Shown piece after piece: positions 26,997 through 64,000 of a stretch of 64,000 nt of DNA. The notes below the pieces were generated by a model. That model saw only the letters and a program-made list of their open reading frames with translations. It did no database searches and was not told where the DNA came from. The first letter of the stretch is position 1, and each line of letters opens with the position of its first letter. Source of the DNA: a virus (taxonomy: Duplodnaviria > Caudoviricetes); the IMG/VR virus record IMGVR_UViG_2872728642_000001, positions 1 to 64,000 of that record. One strand, written 5' to 3'. The translations under genes were made by a program, and so were the position numbers.

Positions 26997-27040
26997 GAGG
27001 GCAGCTCCTGATCTACTACGCTTCTCGGGTGCGGATGCGG

Positions 27041-27409
27041 ATGCTGACCGTCCGGCAGCCATGGGCGGCGTTGCTCGTCACGGGCATCAAGGACGTGGAG
27101 AACCGGAGCTGGGTCACGCCGTATCGGGGCAGGCTCCTGATCCATGCGGGCCTCAAGACCGACGCGGAAGGCTTCGAGCTGATGGAGGAGCTGGGCGTCG
27201 CCCTCGACGGGCCGCTGCTGCGCGGCGCGATCGTCGGGTCGGTGAACCTCGTCGAGATCCGCCAGGACAGCACCTCGCCATGGGCCCGCCCGGGAGAGAA
27301 TCACTGGCTGGTCACTGACGCGCGACCAGCGGTCACGCCGATGGCCGCTGTCGGCGCGCTCGGGCTACGGCCGGCTCCGGCCGGTTGGACGAAGGCTTTC
27401 GCGGCCTAG
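27041..27409 (+). CDS. ASCH-domain protein
   Basis: LTVRQPWA..L..GIKDVENR...YRGRLLIHA and GAIVGSV.L motifs. Alternative starts at 27029 and 27035. Confidence 0.85.
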   Translation: MLTVRQPWAALLVTGIKDVENRSWVTPYRGRLLIHAGLKTDAEGFELMEELGVALDGPLLRGAIVGSVNLVEIRQDSTSPWARPGENHWLVTDARPAVTPMAAVGALGLRPAPAGWTKAFAA

Positions 27410-28488
27410 CGCGGCGCCACGTACTCGAACGACACGACGCCGAGACGGCGCGGGTCGAGCGTCTGCGCGTGCATCCACTGGTGCTTGGAGCGGGTGCCGA
27501 GCTTCTTCTGGCCCTGGATCATCCGCCACCGCGGCGATCCGCTCCGGTAGGCGATCAGCGCCGGATGGCTGGACACCGATCGGTAGCGGAATCCCTGCTC
27601 GTACAGCCGCTGCCCCATCCACTCGGAGAATCGGACGCCGATACCGAGCCCCTGATAGTCCGGCAAGACCACCAACCGGTGCTCCATCTTCAGGTTCCGC
27701 GTCGCGGGGTGCTGGAAGTGGCGGTAAGCCAGGAACGCGACCGGCTCGCCGTCGATGAACCCGGCGAACTTCTTGCTGGAGCGGTGAAGCTCCGTGCTCA
27801 GATAGTGATGGCGTGCGAAGACGGGCCAGAGCTGCCCATCGACCGGCCGGATTTCGAGCCGGAGCACGGGCCGGGGTTGAACCGACCTCCACTCGAACGA
27901 GCCCGTCGAGACGTCCAGCACCCAATCCGGCTGCAGCCACTCCAGCACGTCGTAATGGCATGTCACCGCAACGAACTGGCGGTCGCTGCGCCGTACGGTC
28001 TTCTGGATCGTGTGGCTAGCGACCCGCGCGACCTGGCGGTCCACGACGCTCGTGAACTCGTCGATGACGACCAGTTCTCCCGACTCGGCCAGGGCCCGAG
28101 CGATCGTTGCCCGGAACGCTTCCCCGTTGGACAGGGTCCGGTACGGCCGGAGCCACGCCGGCGGGGAGGACAGGCCGACCGCGCCGAGGAGCGCCACGAT
28201 GTCCTTGATGGACATGTCCGCCGGGAAGTCGTCCACCAGCGACCGGTCATCGGACCAGGTGTGCGGGCTGACGATGTGGTCGGGCCACAGATGCCGCGCG
28301 ATACTGGTCTTCCCGGCTCCCGAGGGGCCGACGATCAGGCCGACGCTCCACGGCCGTTCCTCGATCGGCAGGTCCATCGCCCAGGAATTGCTCAGCCGCT
28401 CCTCCACGGGCACGTCGAACAGGCCCTGGATCTGGAGGACGCGGGCGGTCCGGTGGACCGGTGCCGACACGGTGATCTCGGCTCGCAC
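27406..28488 (-). CDS. ABC-type ATPase fused to a GNAT (Mom-like) acetyltransferase
   Basis: Walker A GPSGAGKT, signature LSNGE, Walker B IDEF, H-loop TCH; FARHHYL and HRLVVLPDYQGLGIG acetyl-CoA motif. Confidence 0.82.
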   Translation of the reverse strand: MRAEITVSAPVHRTARVLQIQGLFDVPVEERLSNSWAMDLPIEERPWSVGLIVGPSGAGKTSIARHLWPDHIVSPHTWSDDRSLVDDFPADMSIKDIVALLGAVGLSSPPAWLRPYRTLSNGEAFRATIARALAESGELVVIDEFTSVVDRQVARVASHTIQKTVRRSDRQFVAVTCHYDVLEWLQPDWVLDVSTGSFEWRSVQPRPVLRLEIRPVDGQLWPVFARHHYLSTELHRSSKKFAGFIDGEPVAFLAYRHFQHPATRNLKMEHRLVVLPDYQGLGIGVRFSEWMGQRLYEQGFRYRSVSSHPALIAYRSGSPRWRMIQGQKKLGTRSKHQWMHAQTLDPRRLGVVSFEYVAPR

Positions 28489-28522
28489 AGCACGACCTTC
28501 CAAGGGGTAGCGGGCGGCGGGG

Positions 28523-29164
28523 TTACATCAGGGCGCGGGCGCTCCAGCCCTGACCGGCGAGCTGGTTGAGGAGCTGCACCTGCTGCGCTTCGCTGTCGCA
28601 GGTGACCACCACGCCCCAGACGACGGGCCGCGTATGGGTCTCGGCGTCGCCCGGTTCGGGCAACTCCTCCTCGTCGTCGGTGCCAGCCTGGTCGGCGCGG
28701 CCACCGCCCGGAGCCGGAGCGCGGTCGGGGGAAAGCGCCACCGCGTTGTCGGCGGCGATGGCGTCGGCCAGGTCGTCGAGATCCTGCTCCGTCCAGCCGG
28801 TGCCGTCGAGGTCGTCGAGGCTGCGCAGCAGCTCGGCAAGGGCCTGGTCGTCGTACCCGCCGATCTCGGCGGTGCGGTTGTCGGCGAGGAGGATGCGCAG
28901 CGCGGCGGCGTCGTCCACGTCGAGGATCAGCGCGGGCACCTGGCCCAGACCCTTGGCCTTCGCGCCCCGCCAGCGGTGCTCACCGGCGATGATCCGCATC
29001 CGGGACTTCTGGACCAGGATCGTGCCGTAGAAGCCGTTCTTCTCGATCGACTTGGCGATCACGTCCACGTCGCCCTGGTGCGGGTTGTCCGGGTGCGGTT
29101 CGAGATCGGCGACCGGCACCATGCGGTAGGTCTGGGAAACGATGGCGGGCATGGACGCGCTCAC
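28523..29164 (-). CDS. ParB/Srx-domain protein
   Basis: DL.PHP.NP, SI...GF...ILV, IIAGEHRW.GA, ILLADNRTAE. Confidence 0.85.
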   Translation of the reverse strand: MSASMPAIVSQTYRMVPVADLEPHPDNPHQGDVDVIAKSIEKNGFYGTILVQKSRMRIIAGEHRWRGAKAKGLGQVPALILDVDDAAALRILLADNRTAEIGGYDDQALAELLRSLDDLDGTGWTEQDLDDLADAIAADNAVALSPDRAPAPGGGRADQAGTDDEEELPEPGDAETHTRPVVWGVVVTCDSEAQQVQLLNQLAGQGWSARALM

Positions 29165-30219
29165 CCGCCTTCCTCGGCCCGAGGCCGGTAGCCGTTCCGG
29201 GTCCGCATCTGCGACATCTTCGCGCCAAGCGCGATCAGCGCGGCGACCTGCCACGTGCCCTTCTCAACCACCTCGTCATCGACCTCGACGGACCACGAGT
29301 CGATCGAGCGGCCCTCCCGGTACGGGATGCCGGGGGTGGCCGTCCACTGCACCGACCAGGACAGGCGGTCGCGCCACCGCAGCCGCGGCCGGCCGAGTCG
29401 TTCCCGCTGAAGCTGCAGACGCACCTCGTGTTGATCGCCCTCGGGCATCCGCACGACGCCCACCTGCTCGTCGCCGACCGGCTCGTAGCTGTACCGCTTG
29501 GGCCCAAACAGGCGCTCCATCAGGTCGAAGCTGGCGTAACCCTGCTGCCACCACGGGGCGGCGCTGTCCCAGTATCCGCTGCGGCCCCAGAGAGCCCACC
29601 GGTACTGCCACTCGCCGATGGCCAGGCGGACCTCGCGCGACTCATATCCGGTCGGGTTGAGTCGGCGCTGCACCCACCTGCCGTATCCCTCGGTGTGCAC
29701 GTAGATGGCCAGCAGTCGGCCGAGCCGCAGGTGTGCGTCCAGCATGTGATCGCTGCCTGCGTTGCCGACCTCGAACCCGATCGAGAAGCCGGGAAGAGCT
29801 CGACTGCCGACGACGACCTGTCCACCGATGGCGCCCCGCGGGCTTTCCGGATACGGGCCGGGCTTGCCCTTGTCGGCATCGTGGACGGGCGCGGTGCGTA
29901 GTCCGAGCATCGCCATCCACGCGTCGGCCGCCAGTACCCGTGTGAGCGGGATCCACGGCCCGCTGTACGGGTCGCCCACCTGGTACTTCGCGGGGTCGAG
30001 CGACCCTTGCGGGCTGGGCCGGACTCCGCACCGGTCGCAGACGATCCAGCGGGCCGCGTGCAGGCCGGGCTCGCACGGGCCATAGCCGTCCACGACCGGC
30101 CGGTGGCCGCGCAGGCGGCAGATGAGCATGAGGCGGGGCAGGTCCGACAGCCACCACCCGCGATCGACGAGTGATTGGCTGTCGTCCTCTGCCTTGTAGT
30201 TGACGCTGTGCCAGCGCAC
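29161..30219 (-). CDS. Hypothetical protein (352 aa, Trp/Arg-rich)
   Basis: Long ORF with GTGA overlap onto parB. Confidence 0.6.
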   Translation of the reverse strand: MRWHSVNYKAEDDSQSLVDRGWWLSDLPRLMLICRLRGHRPVVDGYGPCEPGLHAARWIVCDRCGVRPSPQGSLDPAKYQVGDPYSGPWIPLTRVLAADAWMAMLGLRTAPVHDADKGKPGPYPESPRGAIGGQVVVGSRALPGFSIGFEVGNAGSDHMLDAHLRLGRLLAIYVHTEGYGRWVQRRLNPTGYESREVRLAIGEWQYRWALWGRSGYWDSAAPWWQQGYASFDLMERLFGPKRYSYEPVGDEQVGVVRMPEGDQHEVRLQLQRERLGRPRLRWRDRLSWSVQWTATPGIPYREGRSIDSWSVEVDDEVVEKGTWQVAALIALGAKMSQMRTRNGYRPRAEEGG

Positions 30220-59929: not shown

Positions 59930-60517
59930 TCATCCACGCCAGCGGCGCTGTCGCTCTCCGGCCGTCCCCGCGGGCATGCTGAAGCCGTAGTCGGCGGCCT
60001 TGCTGCGCCAGCGTTCAAGGGTCTTCTCCGGGTTCGCGGCGGGCCGGTTCTCCTGCACGTACTCCTTCAGGGTGCGCCGGAAGTTCGGGTCGTCGAACCG
60101 CTGCTTGAGACGTCCGAGCTGCTCGGCGTCGAGCGGGTCCGGCTTGCCGACGTCGAGGGACTGCGCGAGCAGCGCGTGCCCCTCTGCGTCCGGCAGCAGC
60201 CCTTCCTCGGGCCGGCAGCCGTACGGGCACGGCATCGACTCGACCGCGCCCCAGAGGTGACAGGACATCGGCCGGACGTCGTACACGCTGCACTGCCCGT
60301 CCTTCAGCGCAGGACAGGTGTAGTCGCCGGTCTCGATGAGCTGGGCCAGCGCGTCCCGGTGGTGCGGAATCTTCACGCCTCGCTCCCGGATTCGCTGGTG
60401 CTCGCGCGGGTTCATCCCGACCGGGCCGCAGCTATCGACGCACAAGCCCTTGCAGCCTGGCTGCGGCACCGCGGCGTACAGCTCGTCGAGGGCGGCGTCC
60501 ATGTCAGATCGCTTCAC
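59930..60517 (-). CDS. YkgJ-family (CxxCxxCC-like) cysteine-cluster protein
   Basis: CKGLCVDSCG, CPAL..GQCSVY.VRP..C.LWG. Confidence 0.8.
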   Translation of the reverse strand: MKRSDMDAALDELYAAVPQPGCKGLCVDSCGPVGMNPREHQRIRERGVKIPHHRDALAQLIETGDYTCPALKDGQCSVYDVRPMSCHLWGAVESMPCPYGCRPEEGLLPDAEGHALLAQSLDVGKPDPLDAEQLGRLKQRFDDPNFRRTLKEYVQENRPAANPEKTLERWRSKAADYGFSMPAGTAGERQRRWRG

Positions 60518-60864: not shown

Positions 60865-61222
60865 GCTGCACTCCCCCGAGAGTGACGATGGATTGACACG
60901 AGACCGTAGAGTACGCGCCAGACGCATATGACACATCATTCGCGCCAGTTGCGCAACCGTGAGCGCTCTACCGGCTCCACAGGGCACGGGTTCCCATTGC
61001 TGCCGATCTGCCTACTGCGGGCGAGAGAGTTGGCCCTAGTCAGGCCAGAACCTCTTCTGCGCGATGATGCGGCATCCCACCACACAGGCTGACGCCACCG
61101 GGCGTATCGACCAGCAACAGGCCGTTGCGTATCACTCCATCGACTCGTCGACAGTCGTAACGATGTGACGCCTGGCCGCGACACACAAAGTGGCCAGTTT
61201 TCCTAGCAAGGTGGTGGCCAAG

Positions 61223-62239
61223 ATGGGAAGCGTTGTTTTAGATCTCGCCGTTAGCCTCGTCGCAGCCTTTGTGATCCTTTCGCTGGTGGTGTACGGAATC
61301 AGCGAGGCAATATTCGCAGCGTTCTCCACACGCCCCAAATTTCTGTGGGCATACTTACGCGACACTCTAGATGGCGGAATTGCTACCGGCGAAGGCTGGC
61401 TACCAGTCTCCACGGCCAGCACCGTTCGCATCTTGCGCTTCACCAGGGATCCGCGCCCAGCGTATTCAGACGAGCCTCCGCCGCCTTTGCCTGATGCGTC
61501 CAAACTCCCCAACTGCACGTTCACCGAGCTACTATACGAGCGCATTCGCGAAATGGACCATGCTAGAGGCAGGCGTACCAGCATTAGTCACATTCCAGCT
61601 AAGCGCTTCGCCTTAGCGATCAGCGAAATTTCTGAGGCTTTCAGTAGCGTGGAACAGATGCTCGATTCTATGAAAGCCAGGCACAGTCCAGCGCATGCGC
61701 CGTTAAGTGCACTCTGGGCAGGCTCGCAAGGCGACTACGATCGGTTCCAGCGAGGAGTAGAAGAGTGGTTCGTGGCCGAGATGCAGCAGTTGAACAGGCT
61801 TTATCGCCGCCACACCCGGGGCCCGTTGATGGTGCTCAGTACACTACTGACAATTTTCTTTACAATAGACTCATTTGAATACGTCCAAGCAATTATCGAC
61901 GATAACGCCCTCCGAAGCCTGCTATCTGCTAACGACACAATCGCCGAACCGCTTGCCGCAAGGTGCCGCCTAGAAGAGGGCGGATCCTACTGCCTCAGCC
62001 AACCACCGATCATCCAGGTATTCGGCAATGCACCGATCAGCATGTCGTTCTCTACTGGCCCGCCAACTGCACACTGGAACGGCGTAGAGTGGATGGAGCG
62101 ACTTATCACTCCTCCTCACTGGTTAGGCTTTATTGCGACAATCGTAGCCCTTATGTTCGGGGCTCCCTTTTGGTGGGACCGGCTCATGTCGGCCATCGGC
62201 CTCGGAGGGGCAAATACTGAAAAAGCCTCCACGTTTTGA
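61223..62239 (+). CDS. Lower-GC membrane protein (moron)
   Basis: LDLAVSL...F..LSL, WF...M......YRR, GF..T..A..FGAPFWWD.L; many A/T-ending codons. Confidence 0.7.
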   Translation: MGSVVLDLAVSLVAAFVILSLVVYGISEAIFAAFSTRPKFLWAYLRDTLDGGIATGEGWLPVSTASTVRILRFTRDPRPAYSDEPPPPLPDASKLPNCTFTELLYERIREMDHARGRRTSISHIPAKRFALAISEISEAFSSVEQMLDSMKARHSPAHAPLSALWAGSQGDYDRFQRGVEEWFVAEMQQLNRLYRRHTRGPLMVLSTLLTIFFTIDSFEYVQAIIDDNALRSLLSANDTIAEPLAARCRLEEGGSYCLSQPPIIQVFGNAPISMSFSTGPPTAHWNGVEWMERLITPPHWLGFIATIVALMFGAPFWWDRLMSAIGLGGANTEKASTF

Positions 62240-62571: not shown

Positions 62572-63330
62572 TCAGATCAGGGTGAGTTGTACGGGTTCGG
62601 GCGCGTGGGCGGGGGTGCGCGGTGGAGCCGTGACCGGGCGTGTGGAGGCGAGGTCGTAGCGGCCGTCGTACGGGTCGTGGACCAGCTCGCACGCGTCGAT
62701 CAGCGACGGCGCTTTCTCAAGCAGCAGTTGCCACGTCCAGCGCAGAACGGACGGCAGGTGCTTGTCTGGGCCGTTGGCGAGGAGTGTCCCGTCAGCGGAG
62801 TCGGCGTCCATCGCCGCCGCGGCGTACCGCATCCGCTTGAACGAGTTGACCCGCCCGACGTGGACCCACAGCCCGGCAGCGCACGCGGCGCGCGCGAGCA
62901 CGGCGGCTGCGGGGCTGAGCTTCCAGGACGTTGATCCGCCGATGAACAGGCAGTCGAAGTCCTCCCAGGCCCACCAGTCGCAGAATTCGAGGTAGTCCTG
63001 GGCGACCATCGCGACCGGGTATCCCATTCGCCGGATGCGGTCGAGGTACGGGTATGAGCGGTTCACGGTGGCGAACGCGTTGAAGGGGAGGTCGGGCGCG
63101 GTCGCGAACAAGCACCGGTCGGCGAACGGCGCGCGTTCCTCCAGCCACTCCATGTACGCCTCGTCGCCGACGTACGTGCTGCCGAAGATGCCAGAGTCGG
63201 CGGCCCACCAGCCCTCCTCGGGGACGCGGTTGCCCGAGGAGGGGGTGAGGATGGCGCCGAGCCGGCGCGCGTGGACGTGCTCCCGGATCCGCGCGGTGGA
63301 CGGCGGCGCCAGATACAGCGGCGCGTACAT
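62572..63330 (-). CDS. TGT/DpdA-like base-exchange transglycosylase
   Basis: TGT-like motifs in the right order: ADSGIF, APD, AQD, FIGGS, VHVGRVN, DSADGT. TGATG coupling. Confidence 0.65.
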   Translation of the reverse strand: MYAPLYLAPPSTARIREHVHARRLGAILTPSSGNRVPEEGWWAADSGIFGSTYVGDEAYMEWLEERAPFADRCLFATAPDLPFNAFATVNRSYPYLDRIRRMGYPVAMVAQDYLEFCDWWAWEDFDCLFIGGSTSWKLSPAAAVLARAACAAGLWVHVGRVNSFKRMRYAAAAMDADSADGTLLANGPDKHLPSVLRWTWQLLLEKAPSLIDACELVHDPYDGRYDLASTRPVTAPPRTPAHAPEPVQLTLI

Positions 63331-64000
63331 CAGTAGCAAGCCGCCGCGGTGTCGAACAGACTCGGCTGCCGGACCTTCTTGCGACGACGGACCAGCCCGG
63401 CCTCATACCGGCGGCGCAGCTCCGCGAGCGTCAGCGGGTATTTGACCCCGGCGACAGTCTCGGTGAGGATCGCCACGTCCTTGTCGTGCGTGACGCGGAA
63501 CTTCTCCTCCAGTTCCTCGGCGTAGGCGTACCGCTCCGGGAACTTCTCCAGCGTGAGCAGCCATTGCTCGCGCCCGGCTCGGACGCACAGGCCGCCGCAG
63601 TTGTTGTGTTCGTAGCCCAGCTCGTACAGACGAGGCACCGCGATGCCGAGCGCCCTGCACTCGTCGAGCATGCGGTCCTTGCCCCAGTGCGGCTCGTCGC
63701 ACATGGGGAACTCGACTTGCCACGGCGACCAGCCGGCCACGGTGCCCGGCAGGCGTCGAGTCTCTGCGTGGTCGAATCCGACGTAGGCGATGGTGTGGTC
63801 GGGGTCGCAGTGCTCGGTCATCCATTTCCGGCACGGCACCTGCTTGAGGTGCTTGCTGCAGGGCGCGAGCCGCGAGTTGCCGAGCCACTTGACGTCGAAA
63901 AACACCTCGAACGGCGTTCTGCCGTCCGCGACGATGGTCGGTGCGACGCCCAGGTGGGCGCTGGCGTCGTCCATGAACCGGTAGAGGTCTTCGTCCTCGG
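63330..64000 (-). CDS. PAPS-reductase-like (PP-loop) protein, 5' end outside the window
   Basis: EDEDLYRF, CS..LK..P, VGFD..E..R, P.LY..G..HNNCGG.CV.AG. Confidence 0.75.
   Translation of the reverse strand, partial: EDEDLYRFMDDASAHLGVAPTIVADGRTPFEVFFDVKWLGNSRLAPCSKHLKQVPCRKWMTEHCDPDHTIAYVGFDHAETRRLPGTVAGWSPWQVEFPMCDEPHWGKDRMLDECRALGIAVPRLYELGYEHNNCGGLCVRAGREQWLLTLEKFPERYAYAEELEEKFRVTHDKDVAILTETVAGVKYPLTLAELRRRYEAGLVRRRKKVRQPSLFDTAAACY

Follow-up and report, generated by a model that had tools for sequence, protein, structure and literature searches.

A minimal DpdA-like barrel gene beside a PAPS-reductase-like gene in a prophage of a Nonomuraea-like host: probably independent neighbours in an anti-restriction island

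Introduction

At one end of a 64,000-nucleotide stretch of prophage DNA (the window, G000:C2:6471381-6535380), a gene for a PAPS-reductase-like protein (P0001) overlaps a gene for a barrel protein resembling TGT and DpdA (P0002). Do the two proteins work together, or do they only stand side by side? A preliminary description had proposed the former, with the PP-loop enzyme as the dedicated partner that makes a new base. The present analysis favours, with a probability of about 60%, a reading in which an orphan deazaguanine transglycosylase of a minimal DpdA-like type and a PAPS-like gene that works independently of it share one anti-restriction island. A new DNA-modification pathway shared by P0001 and P0002 is possible, not likely. 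A literature search covering few subscription journals found no assay or paper on the minimal DpdA-like family or on the pairing of barrel and PAPS-like proteins.

The prophage and its modification island

The genome holding the window has 13.8 Mb and 72% GC, and the nearest homologues come from Nonomuraea and relatives, pointing to a Nonomuraea-like host. The region belongs to a prophage whose portal gene falls inside the window and whose tyrosine integrase is encoded at window-equivalent 76748-78163. The block of genes from ArdC-N to P0002 is an anti-restriction/DNA-modification island. Read along the minus strand, its order is ArdC-N, DUF3560-N6 methyltransferase, second PAPS-like gene, C5 methyltransferase, P0001 and P0002. 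The features are as follows.

62572-63330, minus: DpdA-like barrel gene P0002, 252 aa, PHROG 15826
63328-63332, minus: TGATG, a 1-nt stop/start overlap (stop TGA 63332-63330, ATG 63330-63328)
63330-64118, minus: PAPS-reductase-like gene P0001, 262 aa, PHROG 424 (the window holds 63330-64000; 118 nt lie beyond its edge)
64191-66110 (window-equivalent), minus: C5 DNA methyltransferase, 639 aa
66412-67599 (window-equivalent), minus: second PAPS-like gene, about 395 aa, PHROG 424, KSACVQCP motif
67643-69259 (window-equivalent), minus: DUF3560 fused to an N6-type methyltransferase
69555-70196 (window-equivalent), minus: ArdC-N protein

The TGATG coupling of the two genes had been described before and reads as stated. 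The suggestion to look beyond position 64000 for que genes led to methyltransferases, PAPS-like genes and ArdC-N, with no que genes nearby. P0001 and P0002 are genuine, undamaged genes, and purifying selection acts on both, with dN/dS values against kin copies of 0.12-0.33 for P0001 and 0.23-0.33 for P0002.

The island genes upstream of the pair (L001:4191-10196) are variably present among kin prophages. On the other side of the pair, an HU/IHF-type DNA-binding protein (PF00216; 60586-60864, minus) is encoded, as it is downstream in several kin prophages. A 349-aa ORF on the plus strand (61190-62239), of visibly lower GC, with hydrophobic stretches and without a Pfam match, runs against the operon direction; it is absent here from the kin loci listed and is likely a moron. 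Elsewhere in the window, the 'GNAT locus' of the preliminary description (27029-29254) comprises an ABC-type ATPase fused to a GNAT acetyltransferase (27406-28503), beside which lie a ParB-N protein (28523-29254) and, on the opposite strand, an ASCH-domain gene (27029-27409).

The barrel protein P0002

P0002 is a zinc-less TGT/DpdA-type (beta/alpha)8 barrel with a complete set of catalytic residues. Its predicted structure (pLDDT 89) has a confident barrel at residues 1-204 and a low-confidence tail of about 45 residues. All six TGT catalytic motifs that had been reported for it were located in order: D45-S46-G47, P79-D80, Q111, I130-G131-G132, H157-V158-G159 and D177-x-x-D180. The CxCxxC...H zinc site of tRNA TGTs and bacterial DpdA (compare PMC10164549) is absent, the barrel ending at about residue 204, which bears out the reported lack of a C-terminal zinc site.

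In structural comparison (VIA), the leading matches were arcTGT (1iq8, Z 14.5), Cap10 (9ntn, 14.1) and TGT (3unt, 13.8), with rmsd values of 3.2-3.5 over about 200 aligned residues, and Salmonella DpdA (7ui4) reached Z 12.6. Unrelated barrels fall within 1 Z of these top matches and all scores lie within about 2, so the fold alone is not decisive. Foldseek alone was likewise rejected as a test of the fold, as it did not separate TGT from other TIM barrels. What the fold left open is settled by the motif alignment with DpdA1, and P0002 is thus of the TGT/DpdA type. A profile of its family gives a remote match to phage DpdA1 (E 2.5e-5) in which DSG, PD, Q/H, GG and HxG line up, and when P0002 is aligned pairwise with the DpdA of phage 9g, the agreement reaches D180 as well. 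Across the barrel family D45, D80, Q111, G131-G132 and D180 are 90-100% conserved, and in P0002 itself D45, D80, Q111, G132, H157 and D180 are all intact. The conserved motifs correspond to the DpdA catalytic residues Asp95, Asp130, His181 and Asp256 (PMC10164549). The case in which the fold would prove not to be a TGT barrel, raised beforehand as grounds for abandoning the proposal, was not what structure and motifs revealed.

Searches of Pfam, NCBIfam and PDB sequences with P0002 gave no match, and a single PDB profile match, 2jve, was rejected as chance. The nearest named ESM clusters are DUF6610 (0.91; 194 shared features) and DpdA PF23859 (0.88), even though the DpdA4/DUF6610 references PF20314 and HVTV1_69 gave no HMM match to P0002. 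Among PHROG profiles it matches 15826 only, not 887 or 7068 of phage DpdA1, and it has Gln111 where DpdA1 has His. A tblastn search returned 23 cultured-phage matches, and phages nt-1 (DpdA2) and phiST (DpdA3) were not among them.

The PAPS-like protein P0001

P0001 is an adenine-nucleotide alpha-hydrolase of the PAPS-reductase fold. Its structural matches (VIA) are led by PAPS reductase 7rge (Z 12.2), followed by Cap9 (10.9) and QueC (9.7), and the best Foldseek match is CysH 1sur (E 1.2e-5). At the profile level it belongs to PHROG 424 (E 2e-43), PF01507 stays below the cut-off, and a search with the QueC family PF06508 gave no match. Both earlier fold assignments, TGT/DpdA-like for one protein and PP-loop/PAPS-reductase-like for the other, therefore hold in structure and profile comparisons.

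The motif claims for this protein fared unevenly. The HNNCGGLC cluster is present, and C87, C174 and C178, 99-100% conserved across the family, form a putative three-Cys Fe-S site. The PP-loop, in contrast, is not canonical: residues 10-15, coded outside the window, read SGGIGS instead of SGGxDS, and Gly replaces the usual Asp in 86-94% of the family. Adenylation by P0001 is not established, because its PP-loop is without this Asp. True PAPS reductases bind an adenylate and do not make one.

A homologue of P0001 occurs in 89 cultured-phage records, and PAPS-reductase-like phage proteins are common in mobile elements (PMC11437467). One 119-kb provirus (G402:C1:90347-95466, the record of L090) has four tandem PAPS-reductase-like genes, and its DpdA-like gene lies far away from them.

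Do the two genes travel together?

The pairing of P0001 and P0002 is a local arrangement that arose in one recent event. The neighbourhood set for the barrel comprised 240 loci, partly redundant and drawn from genomes, metagenomes and viral contigs; at 70% identity they make up 85 lineages. The P0001 family lies within 2 kb in only 5 of the 240 loci, four of them close kin of the window prophage. Seen from P0001, just one viral locus in a set of 80 for its family has the barrel too, and que genes are found near none of the 80. A survey of 401 genomes of the order found the PAPS-like family in 29 and the barrel in 26, with both in 8 and the two adjacent in 4. Reciprocal and phylogenetically widespread co-occurrence of the families was thus not found. 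Homologues of the two proteins also belong to different phage groups among the cultured-phage matches listed.

The trees give the same picture. The five paired barrel copies form one clade, nested in an importer-less clade of 26 rows (support 99) in which 21 are without a P0001-family partner. In the PAPS tree, paired copies are interspersed with unpaired ones. The cassette itself varies, with methyltransferase and barrel but no PAPS-like gene (L012, L019, L268) or methyltransferase and PAPS-like gene but no barrel (L276). One further locus, L011, has an in-frame TGA in its PAPS-like gene (possibly a sequencing error), while the neighbouring barrel gene is intact. A TGATG overlap is no sign of specific partnership, since five kin loci (L015, L017, L018, L260, L263) have it between the barrel and an upstream gene unrelated to P0001.

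A dedicated PP-loop partner making a new base is therefore unsupported as a conserved pathway: the families mostly live apart and their meeting is recent.

The barrel family and its usual partners

The barrel family comprises 3,404 clusters at 50% identity, and P0002 is a further copy of this large family, already annotated as DpdA-like. Cultured-phage homologues, 44-55% identical over the barrel, carry the annotation 'DpdA-like tRNA-guanine transglycosylase'; they include Aoka gp40, Majeke gp54 with related mycobacteriophages, and Sonali gp81, while ReqiPine5 gp03 is a homologue without a name. Within 2 kb of the barrel, Vut_1/YhhQ is encoded in 147 of the 240 loci, a QueF-like enzyme in 30 and QueC in 11. 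YhhQ is a preQ0 transporter (PMC7544227). As a YhhQ/Vut_1, QueF-like or queC/D/E gene lies within this distance of it in 166 of 240 loci, the barrel family is tied to 7-deazaguanines, and because these salvage and synthesis genes are its usual partners, the pairing with P0001 is not taken as a conserved pathway. In Arthrobacter phage Aoka (L003:3676-6624), an unannotated PAPS-like gp36, Vut_1 gp38 and QueF-like gp39 precede the DpdA-like gp40, and ReqiPine5 gp04 and Majeke gp53 are unannotated Vut_1 proteins upstream of the barrel gene.

Phage Sonali (L005:7998-14411) and the locus L167 combine, in one phage, the minimal family with a canonical DpdA1 and queC/D/E/folE; Sonali was the only match in a search for DpdA1 loci. 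Two TGT-fold genes in one phage suggest different targets or motifs, and this bears on a second explanation of the barrel. It may bind or transfer 7-deazaguanines with a target other than genomic DNA. The target could be tRNA, with tgt and yhhQ as a phage-borne salvage pair for hosts that have no tgt, or, by analogy with Cap10, a protein that becomes deazaguanylated; the PAPS-like gene would then be unrelated. Beyond the Sonali and L167 barrels, which may not duplicate the DpdA1 and full preQ0 pathway beside them, the hosts' lack of tgt fits this explanation. The same holds for the Gln at the position of TGT Gln203, where 9g DpdA1 and Salmonella DpdA have His, and for the best structural matches being arcTGT, Cap10 and bacterial TGT. 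Those Z scores, however, lie close to one another and to unrelated barrels, and the nearest named ESM clusters are DUF6610 and DpdA. The barrel also lacks the zinc subdomain, which in tRNA TGTs serves tRNA binding, and it is found among DNA methyltransferases and fused to them. On balance, a target outside the phage genome is unlikely.

Other PAPS-like genes beside the barrel

A weaker form of the coupled-pathway proposal does find support, as several PAPS-like subfamilies recur by the barrel and one is fused to it. The fusion protein P0394 is a single 599-aa ORF joining a PAPS-reductase domain of the ISGGKDS type to the barrel, two genes after a C5 methyltransferase. It comes from a 44-kb soil phage contig (L376:8001-9800; JGI 3300005329) and was found in several samples; its PAPS domain falls outside the P0001 subfamily. 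Whole-record PHROG/Pfam searches, with methyltransferases as controls, found a PAPS-like gene in 9 of 50 whole viral records with the barrel, and in 6 of these 9 it lies within 1.2 kb, where uniform placement would give 0.61 such cases (P about 5e-6). The control behaved in a similar way, with DNA methyltransferases within 1.2 kb of the barrel in 7 of 23 (Fisher p 0.11 for PAPS-like genes versus methyltransferases).

These data invite the explanation that PAPS-like PP-loop enzymes are optional tailoring or substrate-supplying partners of the DpdA-like family. P0001 would then act on 7-carboxy-7-deazaguanine or on the base already inserted and, by means of its putative three-Cys Fe-S site, yield a new base, for example a thiolated or amidated one. 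In addition to the fusion and the clustering, Aoka and ReqiPine5 have a PAPS-like gene in or near the barrel module, and type IV CBASS offers a precedent in Cap9 and Cap10, a PP-loop enzyme with a zinc-less TGT (10.1101/2025.04.06.647259). The host, moreover, has queD-queE-folE on contig C1 in a genome without queC, and the three invariant Cys recall DndC (PMC10853773). Against this stands the rarity of the arrangement, any PAPS-like gene lying within 2 kb of the barrel in just 19 of 240 loci, 11 of which have que/yhhQ genes too. The PAPS-like genes near the barrel also belong to at least four barely related subfamilies, methyltransferases cluster similarly, and the barrel has further fusions with N6/N4 methyltransferase, QueC, QueF and DUF6884 domains. 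P0001 itself is without the PP-loop Asp, and its family is linked to queD/E in none of 80 loci. A joint pathway of this kind is accordingly rated as quite unlikely.

A lineage-level test for PAPS-like genes replacing que/yhhQ genes was not significant (p 0.41). A steep drop of PP-loop genes with distance from the barrel was rejected as partly an ascertainment bias, because a wider profile found many PAPS-like genes at 2-7 kb, mostly in C5-methyltransferase loci. General clustering of modification genes accounts for the proximity of PAPS-like genes and barrel without a shared pathway, and leaves room for an optional tailoring role. The bolder proposal, that PAPS-like enzymes are interchangeable tailoring partners which in importer-less prophages provide or complete a substitute for guanine that is not among the known DNA deazaguanines, for example a sulfur-bearing one, is very improbable. 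If true, the tailoring reading would add a base to those known from DNA and give PHROG 424, a widespread phage family, its first function.

Host and substrate supply

The host genome (100% complete) contains none of tgt, queC and yhhQ. That folE, queD, queE and queC are missing from the window had been noted before, and a six-frame search of the whole genome extends this to the entire prophage. On the 854-kb host contig C1, queD-queE-folE lie at G000:C1:365102-373894 (L249-L251), beside insertion sequences and followed by ORFs that by eye resemble SAM-methyltransferase, radical-SAM, kinase, HAD and SAICAR-synthetase proteins. This region is possibly a 7-deazapurine natural-product cluster, and its queD-queE-folE could make 7-carboxy-7-deazaguanine.

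The kin genomes are similarly poor. Among 26 of them (25 with the barrel), tgt is found in 0, a full-length QueC match in 2 and Vut_1 in 4, beside the barrel in 3 of these 4. Residue 113 is Gly in 135 of 137 que-linked copies and Tyr, His, Phe or Leu in most of the importer-less clade, a change that goes with importer loss and not with gain of the PAPS-like gene. This raises the further explanation that the barrel of the importer-less Streptosporangiaceae clade no longer exchanges bases, or has no substrate for doing so, and is retained for another role (DNA binding, base excision or sequestering of a host factor, for example) or is slowly decaying. Most of the hosts are without a precursor source, the bulky residue in place of Gly113 occurs only in importer-less copies, and broken barrel copies are present in the kin genomes G109, G255 and G354. 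Singleton DpdAs, moreover, have been proposed to have diverged functionally (PMC6884629). The intact D45, D80, Q111, G132, H157 and D180 and the low dN/dS argue against such a change, which we consider highly doubtful.

A CxxCxxCC/YkgJ-like protein (PF03692, below cut-off; 59930-60502, minus) is encoded 2 kb downstream of the barrel, and the preQ1 methyltransferase DpdM has a YkgJ homologue (PMC10516641). As a DpdM-like partner it was rejected, because its Pfam match does not reach the cut-off and because outside kin prophages it is hardly ever encoded close to the barrel.

Proposed role of the two genes

In the preferred reading, an orphan transglycosylase beside an independent PAPS-like gene, the barrel would follow the TGT double-displacement mechanism. 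By alignment, D180 is the predicted nucleophile and D45 the acid/base, while D80 and Q111 would read the base edge. We infer that the barrel puts a 7-deazaguanine in the place of guanine, with phage DNA as the most likely target, and thereby blocks restriction. In its family the base would as a rule be provided by a YhhQ/Vut_1 importer coupled to the barrel, by a QueF-like enzyme or by queC/D/E. The P0002 lineage has no importer and its host no queC, tgt or yhhQ, and modification is probably low or conditional; the precursor may be scavenged or plasmid-made, as in 'DpdA-only' phages. The DNA of one of these, Orion, is without deazaguanine (PMC6884629), so unmodified DNA in the window prophage would not surprise. 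P0001, a widespread phage enzyme, probably arrived upstream of the barrel recently, and we infer that it acts alone.

Several findings count against this reading. The barrel is under purifying selection in hosts that have no tgt and rarely queC or yhhQ, residue 113 is not Gly, and other PAPS-like subfamilies cluster with the barrel, one of them fused. The importer-less clade is a group of barrels kept under selection in hosts without queuosine genes. The cultured phages Aoka, ReqiPine5 and Majeke and their relatives carry the family, making its target and base directly testable.

Comparison with known systems

Phage DpdA: The described subfamilies are DpdA1 (9g, CAjan, Rosebush), DpdA2-4 and the 'DpdA-only' group (Orion, 7-11) (Hutinet 2019, PMC6884629; Cui 2023, PMC10516641). 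Like phage DpdA, P0002 is a phage-borne TIM barrel with the Asp/Asp/Asp and Gly-Gly motifs in register, and its family is linked to yhhQ, queF-like and queCDE genes. The window prophage resembles the DpdA-only group in having no synthesis genes of its own. Unlike DpdA1, P0002 belongs to PHROG 15826 and not 887/7068, has no Pfam match and is a barrel of about 200 residues; its family has Gln, not His, at the base-reading position and is coupled to Vut_1 in about 60% of loci.

Aoka, Majeke and ReqiPine5: The barrels of these phages are of the same family as P0002. They have Vut_1 upstream (Aoka also a QueF-like gene), whereas P0002 has none, and P0002 differs from these homologues by its tail of about 45 residues.

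DndC, SspD and BrxP: P0001 shares the fold and three conserved Cys with these phosphorothioation enzymes. It is set apart by its SGGIGS loop, and no dnd/ssp partner genes were seen. DndC is larger than the 262-aa P0001.

Cap9 and Cap10: In type IV CBASS the pair is obligate with a CD-NTase and Cap9 is QueC-like, whereas in the present case no CD-NTase was seen, P0001 and P0002 do not form a conserved pair, and P0001 is closer to PAPS reductase. The likeness lies in the pairing of a PP-loop-fold enzyme with a zinc-less TGT-fold protein (10.1101/2025.04.06.647259), and is reflected in Cap10 being the second structural match to P0002 (Z 14.1) and in the Z of 10.9 between Cap9 and P0001.
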